Source of the DNA: a virus
Taxonomy: Duplodnaviria; Heunggongvirae; Uroviricota; Caudoviricetes
IMG/VR virus record: IMGVR_UViG_2663762849_000009
Span: 1 to 4,614 of that record
Reading direction: 5' to 3' (one strand)
DNA length: 4,614 bases
Shown here piece after piece: positions 1 through 4,614 of the stretch. How positions within the stretch are numbered: position 1 is the stretch's first letter; every line of letters starts with the position of its first letter. A program made the translations under genes and the position numbers. The notes below the pieces were generated by a model. The model searched no databases. It was given only the letters and a program-made list of their open reading frames with translations, and had not been told where the DNA came from.

Positions 1-171
1 GGATGAACCACCGGAGCCAGAACCTGAACCACCTCTGCCGGATGAGCCGCCGGAACCCGAGCCGGAGCCACCGCTACCGGATGAACCACCGGAGCCAGAA
101 CCTGAACCACCACCGGAACTGCCGCCGCCTGGGTTACCACCACCGGAACTGCCACCACCTGAGCTACCGCC
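1..171 (-). repeat. Tandemly repetitive Gly/Ser-coding tract inside the J-like CDS
   Basis: The minus-strand translation is almost entirely Gly and Ser (...GGGSSGGGNPGGGSSGGGSGSGSGGSSGSGGSGSGSGGSSGRGGSGSGSGGSS...). Positions 1-33 and 79-111 are an exact 33-nt direct repeat (ggatgaaccaccggagccagaacctgaaccacc). The 15-mer accaccggaactgcc recurs at 108-122 and 144-158. The tract continues beyond the left edge. Confidence 0.75.
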
Positions 172-2403
172 ATCCTCCTTACCATCGGAGAATGCAGGAT
201 CTACAGCAACTGGTTTCCAGTCGGCAGTACAAACTGTATCATCATCGGGATTACAAATAAGAGGATTACCGGTTGCCTCATAAATACACCCCTGCACATT
301 AACATAACGGGTCCCGTCATCACCTTTATAAACATCAGAAAAAGTCATACCATCAAGAACCGGACGAGAAAGACAAATCTCGTCAGTTGGCGGCTTATTA
401 TATTCAGGTGTCAAATCCCCCTCACCACCCTGAAAAGCAAGGGTGCAGGCTGTCCACTTTTGCTTCACCACCCTCGGCGTGTCCCATTTCGCCAGCGCCA
501 GATACTGGCTGTCAGCTGCGCTCACCTCCACCGTCAGGTGCTGCACTGCCGGTGGGATGACGCTGTTCAGGGTGCCTGACTGCGGCTCAAAGCGGGCTCC
601 GTTATCCACAATGGCTTCTTTTTCCGGTACGTGCTGCACCGCCGTGATGGCAAAGGTGCCGTCCGTGTTTTCCCGGATGGCCACACAGCGGAACAGGCGA
701 CGGCGCAGTGACGGCAGGGAGAGTCCCCACACCCCGTATGTCTCCACACCATCAGGCAGGGTACTGACCTGTATCCGGTCCGGCGCGGGGTGTGCGGTGA
801 TGTCCACACTCACCGGCTTACCGCTGCCGTTAATCAGGTTCACCGTCGATGCACCTGTCCCCGGAAGTGTCACTTCACGGTCCAGCGTCAGGGTGCGGGT
901 GGCAGCATCAATGGACAGGACACGTCCGCCGGTCAGGGTTCCGGCATAGTCGTTATCACAGATTTCAATGATGTCGCCGGGTGTGTGACGCAGCCCCTGT
1001 GACCCGAGTGTGAAATCCACCGTCTGCGTTTCCAGCAGTTCTGTCTTTATCACCCACAGCCCGGCACGGTGGGCCTGACCGCGACTGGTGCAGCCGAACG
1101 CATCCATCTTCAGCAGGTTGCGTCCGTAGCGCAGTATGGCTTCCGGGTCTTCCACCAGTTCCGTGGAGGTCTGCCAGCCGTTCTGCGGGTCGGTGTAATT
1201 CACCTCCACCGCCGTGTGCCGGTCCTTCAGGGCACTGAAGCTGTAGCGGAACCCCACGCCGTTATCATCCACCACCACATCGCTGTTGGTGTACGGCCAC
1301 ACCACATCCGACGTGCGGTCCTGAACGAACGTCAGCGTCTGGCCGTTCCATACCGGCATACAGCGCATCGCCGAGCAGAAATCACTGAGAACGTCCCACG
1401 CCTTACGCTGTTGTGCCAGGTACGCATTAAAGGTCATCCGCGGCTCTGTGCCCCCGAAACCATCCGGGACCGTCTGGTCGCAGTACTGCCCGATGGCATA
1501 CAGCGCCCACTTGTCCACATCCGCCGCCCCCAGACGTTTTCCCATCCCGTAGCGCGGGTGAGTCAGCATGTCCCACAGGCACCAGGCCGGGTTGTTGCTG
1601 TATGCCGGTTTCAGACTGCCGTCCCAGATACCGCTGTAGGTGCGTTTTTCCGGGTCATAGTTTGACGGCACCTGGATGATGCGACCGCGGATATGGTAGT
1701 TCACCGTCATCTGCTGACCACCGAACTGCTCCGCATCCACCTGCAGCCCCACAATCGCCGTGTTCGGGTAGCACTGTTTCACATCGATGATTTCGGTGTA
1801 CGATGACCAGAGTGTTCTGTTCTGCAACTGGTCCGTGGTGCTGTCCGCCGTCTCCCGGACCATCCGGATGTTAAAAGGACGGGGAGGCAGATTATCCAGA
1901 ATCACCGACGCCAGAAACTGCGAGGTGGTCTTGCCGTTAATGGTGACATCCTTTTCTGTCACCCAGTTACCGTTACGCTGTAACTGAATCAGCAGGCGGA
2001 CGGATGTCGGGTTTCGGTCACCCTTTGACGTGGTCTGCACCAGTGACTGCACCCCGAAGGTAACCCGCAGGCGGTCAATGTTCGCGGACGTAATGGTGCG
2101 CGTCACCGGTTTTGCCTTCGTCACTTCCACGCCCAGTACAGTTTCAGCTCCGGAGGACTCAAAGCCTTCCGGTGGTGTCTGCTCCTGCTCCCCGGCGCGC
2201 CAGACCGCCGTCACACCGTGTATCACGGGATTACCGTCCGTGTCCGTCAGCGGGGTTTTGTTCACCAGGATACTCTGCAGTCCCTTCACCGGGCCTTCTA
2301 TCGGTCCCTCACCAACCGCATCAATCACGCTCATCATCTGCGTGGATTTGAGATTATCCTTCGCCTCACGAGGCGTGTGTGCCTTACCGCCACCTTTTCC
2401 CAT
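1..2403 (-). CDS. J: Host specificity protein J / central tail fibre (lambda gpJ family), partial: N-terminal 801 codons in window, C-terminus beyond the left edge
   Basis: Hand translation of the minus strand from ATG at 2401-2403 gives MGKGGGKAHTPREAKDNLKSTQMMSVIDAVGEGPIEGPVKG..., which matches my recollection of lambda gpJ (MGKGSSKGHTPREAKDNLKSTQLLSVIDAISEGPIEGPV...). I checked the frame codon by codon from 2403 to 1 and found no stop. A GGAAGG Shine-Dalgarno lies 4 nt upstream (2408-2413, minus strand). J-like similarity continues to about ...HLTVEVSAADSQYLALAKWDTPRVVK (around nt 455-540), then diverges. It is absent from the ORF track probably because its stop lies outside the window. 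Confidence 0.9.
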   Translation of the reverse strand, partial: MGKGGGKAHTPREAKDNLKSTQMMSVIDAVGEGPIEGPVKGLQSILVNKTPLTDTDGNPVIHGVTAVWRAGEQEQTPPEGFESSGAETVLGVEVTKAKPVTRTITSANIDRLRVTFGVQSLVQTTSKGDRNPTSVRLLIQLQRNGNWVTEKDVTINGKTTSQFLASVILDNLPPRPFNIRMVRETADSTTDQLQNRTLWSSYTEIIDVKQCYPNTAIVGLQVDAEQFGGQQMTVNYHIRGRIIQVPSNYDPEKRTYSGIWDGSLKPAYSNNPAWCLWDMLTHPRYGMGKRLGAADVDKWALYAIGQYCDQTVPDGFGGTEPRMTFNAYLAQQRKAWDVLSDFCSAMRCMPVWNGQTLTFVQDRTSDVVWPYTNSDVVVDDNGVGFRYSFSALKDRHTAVEVNYTDPQNGWQTSTELVEDPEAILRYGRNLLKMDAFGCTSRGQAHRAGLWVIKTELLETQTVDFTLGSQGLRHTPGDIIEICDNDYAGTLTGGRVLSIDAATRTLTLDREVTLPGTGASTVNLINGSGKPVSVDITAHPAPDRIQVSTLPDGVETYGVWGLSLPSLRRRLFRCVAIRENTDGTFAITAVQHVPEKEAIVDNGARFEPQSGTLNSVIPPAVQHLTVEVSAADSQYLALAKWDTPRVVKQKWTACTLAFQGGEGDLTPEYNKPPTDEICLSRPVLDGMTFSDVYKGDDGTRYVNVQGCIYEATGNPLICNPDDDTVCTADWKPVAVDPAFSDGKEDGGSSGGGSSGGGNPGGGSSGGGSGSGSGGSSGSGGSGSGSGGSSGRGGSGSGSGGSS

Positions 2404-2506
2404 ACAGCCTTCCCCTGAATAAATTAACCGCCACTTGCCATTCCGTACAGAAGTCGGATATCCTTCGCCCGAAAAGCATGAAACACATTTCTGCCATGCT
2501 AAAGAG

Positions 2507-2541
2507 AAACCCCGGTATCAGCAGATACCGGGGTTTTCTTT
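2507..2541 (+). terminator. Intrinsic (rho-independent) terminator hairpin, possibly bidirectional
   Basis: Perfect 12-bp inverted repeat aaaccccggtat (2507-2518) / ataccggggttt (2525-2536) with loop cagcag, followed by ttttcttt on the plus strand. On the minus strand the stem is followed by a weaker T-rich stretch (tttctcttt). Confidence 0.6.
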
Positions 2542-2608
2542 CATGTCCACCGATAATCCTGTTGGTAAAAACCGGTAATGGCATAAAAATTCTGAATATC
2601 TTCACATT

Positions 2609-2636
2609 TTCACAAACTGACTGTGGCGCGTATAAT
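2609..2636 (+). promoter_or_regulatory. Sigma70-like promoter: -35 TTCACA (2609-2614), 16-nt spacer, -10 TATAAT (2631-2636)
   Basis: Consensus -10 hexamer and a 5/6 match to the -35 hexamer with near-optimal spacing, in an AT-rich intergenic region. It points rightward, antisense to the tail operon. Confidence 0.4.
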
Positions 2637-2703
2637 TTCGCTGCGTTAGTGTTTTTTTGCCCGAGTAACAAAAACAACTCCTTAACTCTAATCTTTGTCT
2701 GTC

Positions 2704-2737
2704 CCCGCAGCTCCGCGATCACTGCGGGATTTTTTTA
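2704..2737 (+). terminator. Intrinsic terminator-like hairpin plus T-tract on the plus strand
   Basis: Stem cccgcag (2704-2710) / ctgcggg (2722-2728) with an 11-nt loop, followed by seven T (2730-2736). It lies just downstream of the I stop codon in the I-J spacer. Confidence 0.5.
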
Positions 2738-2743
2738 TTCTTT

Positions 2744-3424
2744 TTACCCCTGCCGCCCGATAACCACGACCTTTCCGCACCCGCCTTCATCACGGGTACT
2801 GATGTCCTGGGATATACGGCGGGAGCCAACCAGCATTTCCCCGTAAGGCACCGGCATCGGGTTACCCTGGGCAATCATGTTGTCCAGTGACGAAAAATAC
2901 GTGTTCTGTCTGCCGTTATCCGTTGCGCGGTAATCCGGTGTTTTTGCCTTCGGGGCCAGCATCTGGGCCACACCACCCAGAATCATGCTGGCCCCCAGTG
3001 AAAACAGCATCGTGGTGGCAGAAAAACCGCCGGCACTCAGGGCTGTACCCCATAACGCCATCGAGGCACCGGCAGTGAGGAAAGAGCCCACGATGGCTGC
3101 CGCCCCCAGCACAATCTGCAGTCCACCCTTTCCGGCCCCGGCCAGTCGCGGCACAATATGGATAACCGTTCCCTCACTCAGTGGTTCGTGAAGGCGGGCA
3201 TACACCGCCTCCGGTGCCGTATCCTCACCGGCAATGCGTATCTGGTACCAGCCTTCGTTCATCTGACGGCGAAAGCCCGGCACCTGCATCGACAGTGCGC
3301 GGATGGCTTCCGCTGCCGTGTTCACATACAGGCTGAGGCGGCGGCCAAATCGTTGTAAATCCCCGTGAAGGCAGATGCGTGCCAGTGGCGGTGACGCCAG
3401 ACAGAATGCGTTCGTCGTTGCCAT
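2744..3424 (-). CDS. I: Tail assembly protein I (lambda gpI family)
   Basis: The 226-aa ORF (MATTNAFCLASPPLARICLHGDLQRFGRRL...TDNGRQNTYFSSLDNMIAQGNPMPVPYGEMLVGSRRISQDISTRDEGGCGKVVVIGRQG) closely resembles my recollection of lambda gpI (223 aa), including the ARICLYGDLQRFGRR and TDNGKQNTYFSSLDNM blocks. Its start overlaps the 3' end of the K reading frame by 103 nt, as in lambda. TAA stop at 2744-2746. Confidence 0.9.
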   Translation of the reverse strand: MATTNAFCLASPPLARICLHGDLQRFGRRLSLYVNTAAEAIRALSMQVPGFRRQMNEGWYQIRIAGEDTAPEAVYARLHEPLSEGTVIHIVPRLAGAGKGGLQIVLGAAAIVGSFLTAGASMALWGTALSAGGFSATTMLFSLGASMILGGVAQMLAPKAKTPDYRATDNGRQNTYFSSLDNMIAQGNPMPVPYGEMLVGSRRISQDISTRDEGGCGKVVVIGRQG

Positions 3425-3798
3425 TTTTCGGAATACCTCTCCCGTTTACTCAGTTGTTCAGGCAGATGGTGAAGCAGCTCACCGTTGCCGCAGTAAATGG
3501 CGGCATGGTTCGGTACCGAAGCACCAAAGCAGCACAGCAGAATATCGCCCGCCTGTGCAGAGGACAGGGGCACCCGGTAAAAGCCCGTTTCCTCCATATT
3601 GTCCAGGTACAGGTTCTGGCCGTTGCGCCACCAGTCATCCTCGCGATGAAAATCCGGCATTTCAGTCCCCGCCAGATGATAAGCATCCCGGAACAGCGTG
3701 TAACAGTCCGTCACCCCGTGCGCAAAGCGCCGTCCGGTCAGGTGCGGCACACAGCGGAATTTGTGAATGTCACCCCGGCAGACCAGCCACCAGGGCAC
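3322..3798 (-). CDS. K: Tail tip assembly protein K (lambda gpK family), C-terminal NlpC/P60-like portion; frame separated from the N-terminal portion
   Basis: Translation (V)PWWLVCRGDIHKFRCVPHLTGRRFAHGVTDCYTLFRDAYHLAGTEMPDFHREDDWWRNGQNLYLDN...LLCCFGASVPNHAAIYCG... matches the gpK C-terminal region as I recall it, with the Cys/His residues expected of an NlpC/P60 peptidase. The track start is a GTG at 3796-3798, preceded two codons upstream by an in-frame TAA, so this is the continuation of K in a different frame rather than an independent gene. Confidence 0.75.
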   Translation of the reverse strand: MPWWLVCRGDIHKFRCVPHLTGRRFAHGVTDCYTLFRDAYHLAGTEMPDFHREDDWWRNGQNLYLDNMEETGFYRVPLSSAQAGDILLCCFGASVPNHAAIYCGNGELLHHLPEQLSKRERYSEKWQRRTHSVWRHRHWHASAFTGIYNDLAAASACM

Positions 3799-4054
3799 TC
3801 TTTATCTGCAGCCGCCGGTCCGCCTCGCTCAGCCAGGGCAGACCACCGGGATGACTGTGGACCAGCGCCACAATCTCCCCCTGCATCTCTGCCCGCAGCC
3901 AGTCTTCCGGCGCAATACGAAAATACGCCTCCGGCTCTGCGGAAATATTCACACAAGGGATATACCGCTCCCCCTCCGGCGTTCTCACCACGAAGCCGCA
4001 CGACTCCGCAGGCGCACACCGCCGGGCATGTGCCAATATATTGCTATAGAGCAT
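3770..4054 (-). CDS. K: Tail tip assembly protein K (lambda gpK family), N-terminal MPN/JAMM domain portion; ends prematurely at TGA 3770-3772
   Basis: Translation MLYSNILAHARRCAPAESCGFVVRTPEGERYIPCVNISAEPEAYFRIAPEDWLRAEMQGEIVALVHSHPGGLPWLSEADRRLQIKS... contains an exact JAMM motif (E...HSHPGGLPWLSEAD, i.e. HxHx7Sx2D). I place the start at ATG 4052-4054, which has an AGGAG Shine-Dalgarno (4061-4065, minus strand), rather than the track's ATG at 4091-4093, which sits inside the terminator hairpin. Confidence 0.75.
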   Translation of the reverse strand: MLYSNILAHARRCAPAESCGFVVRTPEGERYIPCVNISAEPEAYFRIAPEDWLRAEMQGEIVALVHSHPGGLPWLSEADRRLQIKSALVAGLPG

Positions 4055-4066
4055 GAGAACTCCTGA

Positions 4067-4090
4067 TAAAAAACCCAGCCGAGGCTGGGT
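4067..4090 (-). terminator. Intrinsic terminator downstream of the 4109..4531 ORF and immediately upstream of the K ribosome-binding site
   Basis: Inverted repeat acccagc (4073-4079) / gctgggt (4084-4090) with a 4-nt loop. On the minus strand the hairpin is followed by TTTTTTAT (complement of 4066-4073). Confidence 0.6.
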
Positions 4091-4108
4091 CATTTCGTTG
4101 GTAATCTG

Positions 4109-4531
4109 TTAGTAGTGATGCAGTGAAGGCGGCAACTCTTTGCTCTTAAGCCTTACCCATGCGGAAAGATTCGTTGGTCCATCTGGCTCATTAATATCAA
4201 CATCTCGTGTGTGATTGATTAAAACGTCTCTCGCCATTCCAATAACATACGAGAACTCATGGCCGTAGTTGTAGCACCTGTCAGAATAGTTCGATTGAAT
4301 TTGCTTTAGCGCCGGATACAGTTCGCGGAATAATGCCTGTGAGCGGTTGGCATAATCCCATAGCCATACAAGGCTGTTTGCTTCTTTTGCGGAAAGCTCG
4401 TTGGTTTTCTTCTCTTGTTTGCCAATGAACTCACCTTCAAGCACTACCCTGTGGATGTACTCTACGGCCAGCGGGATTTGTTCAATTGAAAGTTCATCAA
4501 TGCTGTCAATACCAAAACGCTGATGAACCAT
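4109..4531 (-). CDS. Hypothetical protein, function unknown (AT-rich moron-like ORF upstream of K)
   Basis: A 140-codon ORF on the same strand as the tail genes. My hand counts of 60-nt stretches give roughly 40-43% GC here against roughly 60% in the J gene. An intrinsic terminator follows it immediately (4067-4090). I recognise no family from the sequence. No obvious Shine-Dalgarno precedes the ATG at 4529-4531. Confidence 0.55.
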
Positions 4532-4555
4532 ATTGTATGCATCGTCATAGCGAAG

Positions 4556-4614
4556 TCATTTCTTTCCTACCAGCATGTTTACTGCATCGCGTAGAGGTGT
4601 GCGTTCAGCTACTG
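4556..4614 (-). CDS. Possible 3' end of an upstream ORF entering from the right edge (last 18 codons, ...VAERTPLRDAVNMLVGKK, then TGA)
   Basis: This is the only minus-strand frame open from the window edge to 4559, and it is the same frame as the 4109..4531 ORF, separated from it by TGA at 4556-4558. Eighteen stop-free codons is weak evidence on its own. Confidence 0.25.
   Translation of the reverse strand, partial: VAERTPLRDAVNMLVGKK

Follow-up and report, generated by a model that had tools for sequence, protein, structure and literature searches.

An AT-rich open reading frame upstream of tail gene K as a probable remnant of a P22-type antirepressor gene

A stretch of tailed-phage DNA of 4,614 nucleotides (record IMGVR_UViG_2663762849_000009, positions 1 to 4,614; hereafter the window) carries an AT-rich open reading frame (ORF) of 140 codons directly upstream of the tail gene K, and the question is what this ORF encodes and how it came to stand there. 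An earlier note on this DNA, made from the letters alone, took it for a complete gene of unknown function with its own terminator, either inserted in the manner of a moron or marking the edge of a replacement. Our analysis gives a more specific answer: the ORF is very probably the C-terminal remnant of an ant gene belonging to a cassette of the P22 immI type, left as a pseudogene in a decaying prophage.

Layout of the window and the interrupted reading frame

Every gene of the window is encoded on the minus strand, in the order of transcription ant ORF, hairpin with T-run, K, I, spacer and J (Table 1). Position, strand and translated protein of the 140-codon ORF were as previously described, and its contrast in base composition with the neighbouring genes was clear. 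The GC content of the ORF is 44.7 % (GC3 47.5 %), whereas K has 59.1 %, I 60.1 % and the part of J 59.9 %; the 40-43 % estimated by hand for the ORF was slightly low. The reading frame of K is indeed broken, as the earlier note had recognised, by a 5-bp deletion at 3797/3798 which leaves two ORFs, 3770-4054 and 3322-3798. In comparison with the prophages of E. coli TOE17 and O145 RM9872, the tandem repeat TGCCC TGCCC (TGCCCTGCCC) has lost one of its copies. Among complete E. coli genomes the best match to the whole window had 95.9 % identity over 86 %, and an Rfam scan of the window gave no family at E <= 1.

Table 1 Positions of the features discussed, in window coordinates
Feature	Position	Strand	Remarks
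140-codon ORF	4109..4531	minus	ant residues 170-309; begins at a conserved internal Met
ant pseudogene (probable), 3' 168 codons	4109..4614	minus	continues past the right window edge; intact relative has 309 codons
In-frame TGA	4556..4558	minus	tca on the plus strand; GGA (Gly161) in relatives; altered base 4558
P22_AR_C domain (Pfam PF10548)	4196..4414	minus	ORF residues 40-112
Intrinsic terminator of ant (t_ant)	4068..4091	minus	homologue of the annotated P22 and Emek ant terminators
K ribosome-binding site (AGGAG) and start (ATG)	4060-4064; 4052-4054	minus	
Tail gene K	3322-4054	minus	JAB and NlpC/P60 domains
Tail gene I	2744-3424	minus	
I-J spacer	2403-2743		341 nt, 43 % GC; lambda counterpart 60 nt
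J, first ~646 codons		minus	truncated, joined to other DNA

Two further regions of the window are described here for their own sake. The DNA to which J is joined (1-465, minus strand) matches, with 99.6 % identity, the interior of a g3p-like gene of an inovirus-like (filamentous) prophage in E. coli 100416, where this gene adjoins Zot and secretin genes. The g3p-like part shows a Pfam Phage_Coat_A match (1.7e-9) followed by Gly/Ser-rich linker repeats, and it is joined in frame to J at about codon 646, at 463-465, with a 3-nt microhomology (CTT). The junction was found in no complete E. coli genome; either a degraded prophage region has undergone a unique illegitimate recombination here, or the assembly is chimeric. 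At least 80 % of the I-J spacer is present in 1,445 complete E. coli genomes. The plus strand of the spacer, opposite to the tail genes, contains a promoter match close to the consensus (TTCACA-16-TATAAT, 11/12), followed about 75 nt downstream by a hairpin with a run of seven T (2712-2735), and a 14-bp bidirectional hairpin is located at 2506-2537. The arrangement, especially at 2609-2737, looks like a putative small-RNA unit of about 95 nt, with a fold z-score of only -1.45 and no Rfam match. That the unit is a Pas sRNA was ruled out, the Pas sRNA preprint placing those RNAs near Q and the lysis genes and not between I and J.

The frame of the 140-codon ORF is open upstream as far as the window edge (4612), except for one stop, a TGA (4556-4558) located eight codons ahead of the ATG at 4531. 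The residues encoded upstream of the ORF (VAERTPLRDAVNMLVGKK) have homologous counterparts in this protein of the relatives. The closest public sequence, the prophage of E. coli TOE17, is 99.7 % identical over 4000-4614 and differs there at two bases, one of which makes GGA of the TGA. The TOE17 gene is intact, with a CDS of 930 nt encoding 309 amino acids, and the last 140 residues of its product are identical to the window ORF. The exact 309-aa TOE17 protein was found on 249 contigs in a large protein collection, and its cluster has 164 members, of which most of those listed are also 309 aa long. As the frame is open upstream, the upstream residues are homologous and the TGA stands alone, the ORF corresponds to that part of a longer gene which lies between a nonsense mutation and the gene's natural stop. 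Judged from the sequence, the 140-codon ORF as called is thus an artefact of choosing the first ATG past the nonsense mutation, and the supposedly complete gene is the 3' remnant of one of 309 codons. The Met at the ATG at 4531 is internal and, according to the alignment, conserved in P22 Ant. No Shine-Dalgarno sequence was found in the 30 nt upstream of this ATG (AAATGACTTCGCTATGACGATGCATACAAT). A separate promoter for the ORF was considered and rejected: the only candidate before the ATG is weak (9/12) and lies within conserved coding sequence.

Together with the 5-bp deletion in K, the TGA in ant is most simply read as the mark of a decaying prophage, a suggestion of the earlier note that held up. 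The nonsense codon in ant, the frameshift in K and the truncation and fusion of J all fit prophage decay.

A single-base TGA could, however, be a sequencing error, and if ant is intact in the real genome the TGA (perhaps the K deletion too) would reflect sequencing or assembly and the locus would be an ordinary functional ant. The TGA allele was not recovered elsewhere: none of 5,426 complete E. coli genomes contained an exact match to a 61-nt probe across the stop (the best matches, at 98.4 %, had one mismatch), and the exact 40-nt pattern was absent from species-representative genomes. The only match to the exact 140-aa protein came from a 531-bp metagenome contig which starts 2 nt before the ATG and is thus uninformative on the stop codon. 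It also suits an error that the TGA needs only one base change, that K has lost one copy of a short tandem repeat, and that the junction at 463-465, seen nowhere else, could point to a poor or chimeric assembly. On the other hand, modern assemblies seldom contain substitution errors, prophage decay would account equally well for three independent lesions within 4.6 kb, and another prophage, described below, carries an independent nonsense mutation in ant. We regard an error as unlikely, and favour a genuine pseudogene in a decaying prophage.

Relationship to P22 Ant and the shared 3' end

The function of the ORF had been left unassigned, which its homology no longer allows. The ORF matched the full P22_AR_C profile of Pfam (1-73) with an E-value of 7.5e-29 and 100 bits (cut-off 22.4), as well as the PHROG families 245 and 377, both named 'anti-repressor Ant'. 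In the 309-aa TOE17 protein Pfam recognised KilA-N at residues 17-127 (1.6e-22) and P22_AR_C at residues 209-281 (3.8e-29). This protein is 85 % identical to Ant of the Salmonella phage P22 over the last 170 residues, and 86 % identical over its full length to Ant of the P22-like phage vB_SemP_Emek (AFM54341). The DNA of Emek is 93.4 % identical to the window from 4068 to the window edge, and the alignment begins exactly at the T-run of the terminator. None of the N-terminal regulator domains P22_AR_N, KilA-N, Bro-N or ORF6N stands on the same polypeptide as P22_AR_C in the window copy, which is cut by the TGA and whose N-terminal domain lies beyond the window. Since the polypeptide is cut before P22_AR_C, the window copy is a pseudogene of the Ant family and not a working member.

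Of the protein analyses that the earlier note had in mind, sequence searches identified Ant, but structure prediction added little: the AlphaFold2 model of the 140 aa, based on a 17-sequence alignment, was poor (mean pLDDT 51.5, pTM 0.26). Among solved structures, a sequence search that used the 309-aa homologue as query gave no match (best E = 0.5). Two other antirepressors were considered and set aside. The 'antirepressor' of a paper on the O157 prophage pool (PMC2669165) is Cro, and the Qin/Rem antirepressor (PMC10448788) belongs to a different antirepressor family.

In the window, ant is followed by its own intrinsic terminator, as in P22 immI. The hairpin noticed earlier between the ORF and K was confirmed, with a stem at 4072-4091 of 8 pairs (5 G-C), a loop of 4 nt and a six-T run at 4068-4073. 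The 63 nt around it fold at -19 kcal/mol, with z = -2.8 compared to shuffled sequences. Its homologue in P22 is the terminator annotated at 16012-16035, and an alignment of ant 3' ends from the window, P22, Emek, an O145 prophage and another P22-like prophage showed a single homologous hairpin and T-run in all five sequences. The similarity between lambdoid and P22-like sequences ends immediately past the T-run of t_ant.

The last ~100-110 residues of Ant hardly vary between proteins that begin with one of four unrelated domains (P22_AR_N, KilA-N, Bro-N or ORF6N), the near-invariant block being defined in the alignment as window 4109-4442 and its homologues. Compared to P22 DNA, the window is 95-97 % identical over 4313-4432 and only 62-67 % identical upstream of 4492. 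The invariance of the 3' block and the drop in identity upstream of it indicate that the 3' end of ant, together with the terminator, behaves as a shared recombination block. A second split allele was found in a P22-like prophage (L010; Logan SRR28340039, 3521-4423), where an independent nonsense codon, GAA to TAA (YP*AY), interrupts ant five codons downstream of the position of the TGA in the window. This stop was seen on three contigs, and the gene calls there are a 156-aa P22_AR_N ORF and the same 140-aa P22_AR_C ORF. The independent nonsense codon shows that inactivation of ant recurs; the closeness of the two stops is uninformative, as ORFs beginning with this Met were preferentially recovered by the search.

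It is conceivable that the 140-aa P22_AR_C protein is made alone, by reinitiation at the ATG at 4531 about 24 nt past the stop, and that the split ant has been selected as a source of a stand-alone or dominant-negative antirepressor. In favour of this, the C-terminal ORF carries no lesion and encodes the same protein sequence as its TOE17 homologue, the near-invariance of the P22_AR_C block behind four N-terminal domains suggests an autonomous module, and the L010 allele yields the identical ORF. Yet the ATG lacks a Shine-Dalgarno sequence, the TGA allele was found in none of the 5,426 complete genomes, and most short homologues are labelled partial or come from short contigs; owing to the bias of the search, the proximity of the L010 stop carries little weight. 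Such a protein is improbable in our view. A wider idea is that the split alleles of the window and L010 still deliver the P22_AR_C half, through reinitiation or read-through at UGA-C, and that this half tunes prophage cross-talk as an antirepressor of weak or dominant-negative action, with the last ~110 codons and t_ant forming an autonomous unit common to podoviruses and siphoviruses; this we would give a slim chance. An inactivated ant gene, of which the ORF is the 3' part, remains the reading that we follow below.

The cassette between L and K

Relatives with and without the cassette define where it was inserted. In lambda and in a prophage of E. coli G6/7, both of which lack it, the L stop codon and the ATG of K are 5-9 nt apart (MTQTESAILAHARRC); the I-J spacer of the G6/7 prophage is 100 % identical to that of the window. 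The comparison with insert-free relatives that had been proposed thus revealed an empty L-K junction, and it bears out the view of a foreign, AT-rich insert with its own terminator between tail genes. The other suggestion made earlier, that L, M and further genes had been deleted and replaced, finds no support in the relatives, as L, M and H lie just beyond the cassette in TOE17, O145 RM9872 and phage YYZ-2008.

In the TOE17 prophage about 2.1 kb with a GC content of 44.0 % separate the L stop from the K start. L is followed by a hairpin terminator. Next to it a ClpP-like gene and a divergent 82-aa gene of the Arc family (mnt-like) are located on the opposite strand, and upstream of arc there is a candidate promoter, TTGACT-16-TAGTAT (consensus match only), flanked by three CTACACyGTG repeats. 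The arc gene encodes a 46-aa Arc-domain protein (Pfam Arc, 5e-13), the sar antisense RNA is recognised by Rfam (RF00262, 67.6 bits compared to a gathering score of 43), and ant with its terminator comes last. The cassette of O145 RM9872 is 1.7 kb long with 42.9 % GC and contains a divergent Arc-family gene, arc, and an ant with a Bro-N N-terminal domain. In the annotated P22 record the order of immI is mnt, Pant/Pmnt with operators, arc, sar, ant and terminator, and the GC content of P22 immI, 44.1 %, equals the 43-44 % of the tail-region cassettes. The arc, sar, mnt-like and promoter parts are those of the relatives; of the cassette, the window covers no more than t_ant and the 3' half of ant.

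On the K side the T-run of t_ant is directly followed by ATC-AGGAG-TTCTC-ATG of K. The first ~7 codons of K in the window (MLYSNILAHARRC) are unlike those of lambda and G6/7, which places the right junction of the cassette inside the very start of K. The boundaries of exchange are the terminator and the L stop codon, and the locus illustrates clearly how a single regulatory module moves from podoviruses to siphoviruses or the reverse. As a side observation, the annotated K of lambda (RefSeq NC_001416, 4628-4777 of the compared locus) starts 148 nt after L, and in the alignment of lambda and G6/7 a conserved ATG is found 5 nt past the L stop, which gives MTQTESAILAHARRC. The annotated lambda K is probably short at its N-terminus.

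The arrangement is widespread. At least 80 % of the stretch with ant, terminator and K (4000-4614) is present in 441 of the 5,426 complete E. coli genomes, partial matches to it occur in about 2,000, and it is also found in many Stx-converting phages. In phage YYZ-2008, ant lies between an L-like gene and K. Ant genes have been reported for 126 of 279 Stx phage genomes (PMC8136144). An ant cassette between L and K is already known, being annotated in hundreds of genomes and phages.

The insert resembles a moron in that it stands between genes adjacent in related phages, differs in base composition from its neighbours (44.7 % compared to 59-60 % GC) and has its own terminator, present in the window. 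Despite this layout, a novel moron gene of unknown function, serving lysogenic conversion, exclusion or anti-phage defence as the earlier note had supposed, can practically be dismissed: nothing points to such functions, the sequence identifies ant (Pfam, PHROG, homology to P22 and Emek Ant), the ORF is only part of a gene, and in relatives ant is accompanied by immI regulators.

Other cargo was observed in the tail region of the TOE17 prophage (L001), namely sodC in the I-J spacer, which is absent from the window, the ClpP-like protease gene beside the mnt-like gene, and an ompC porin gene between L and M. In this order, the coordinates of the cargo genes in L001 are 6971-7498, 10599-11135 and 12089-13222.

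Proposed mode of action and comparison with known systems

According to PMC3121763, which cites Susskind and Botstein (1975), P22 Ant inactivates the C2 repressor of P22 and the repressors of L, lambda and 21. The same paper and the P22 record describe the control of P22 ant, exerted on its promoter by Mnt and Arc and on top of this by sar, an antisense RNA. Antirepressor activity is established for P22 Ant; in the KilA-N variant and the tail-region copies it is presumed.

Following the work on P22, intact Ant would bind immunity repressors of the CI/C2 type non-covalently and inactivate them, and it could derepress its own or co-resident prophages. Mnt and Arc, acting on the ant promoter, and sar, which pairs with the ant leader, would keep ant silent in a lysogen. 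By analogy, the cassette in lambdoid prophages may have the same role, i.e. trans-acting derepression among co-resident prophages. We anticipate that t_ant stops the cassette transcript just before K, and that, by analogy with lambda, late, Q-modified and terminator-resistant transcription would pass t_ant so that K, I and J are expressed. In the window copy, the change from GGA to TGA at codon 161 would halt translation after residue 160, past the KilA-N half. Most likely the P22_AR_C half is not made, or is made only in traces via UGA read-through or reinitiation, and Ant function has presumably been lost by the truncation.

The correct label of the ORF is an ant pseudogene fragment in a P22 immI-like cassette, and not a hypothetical moron protein. 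Intact copies of the cassette are of real interest, since trans-acting antirepressors can couple the induction of co-resident prophages, including Stx phages. Such coupling is established biology and the copy in the window is broken, so that it has little import beyond annotation.

Compared to P22 immI, the cassette has the same gene order in the relatives (arc, sar RNA and a divergent Arc-family repressor). In P22, however, the cassette is located upstream of the tailspike gene of a podovirus, whereas here it is between the siphovirus tail genes L and K; TOE17 has the extra ClpP-like gene beside the mnt-like gene, and ant of the window is cut by a stop codon. The likeness to P22 Ant itself lies in the P22_AR_C half and in the GC content (44.7 % for the window ORF and 43.6 % for P22 ant), while the N-terminal half is P22_AR_N in P22 and KilA-N in the TOE17 lineage. 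Ant of Emek has the same KilA-N and P22_AR_C architecture as that of TOE17, and arc, mnt and a terminator are annotated nearby. Emek differs in being a podovirus with the cassette before the tailspike gene, and its ant (296 aa) is intact.

With the morons of lambdoid phages, a concept said to go back to Hendrix and Juhala, the cassette shares its nature as extra DNA between adjacent genes, with differing composition, with its own terminator and with a putative promoter of its own. It differs from them in its cargo, which is a phage immunity-control module and not a gene of benefit to the host; we know of no host benefit of a P22-type ant cassette. In P22 lysogens mnt is expressed and ant is repressed, in agreement with the annotation of the P22 record, and the main gene of the cassette, ant, is kept off in the lysogen, unlike the expressed gene of a moron.

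Further parallels are found among the lambdoid prophages of EHEC and the Stx phages. In YYZ-2008, the Stx2 phage 1717, phage 2851 and the O145 RM9872 prophage the insertion site is the same as in the window. The start of K, the terminator and the last ~110 codons of ant are 90-95 % identical in DNA between these phages and the window, whereas the N-terminal domain of their Ant is Bro-N or ORF6N and their ant genes are intact.
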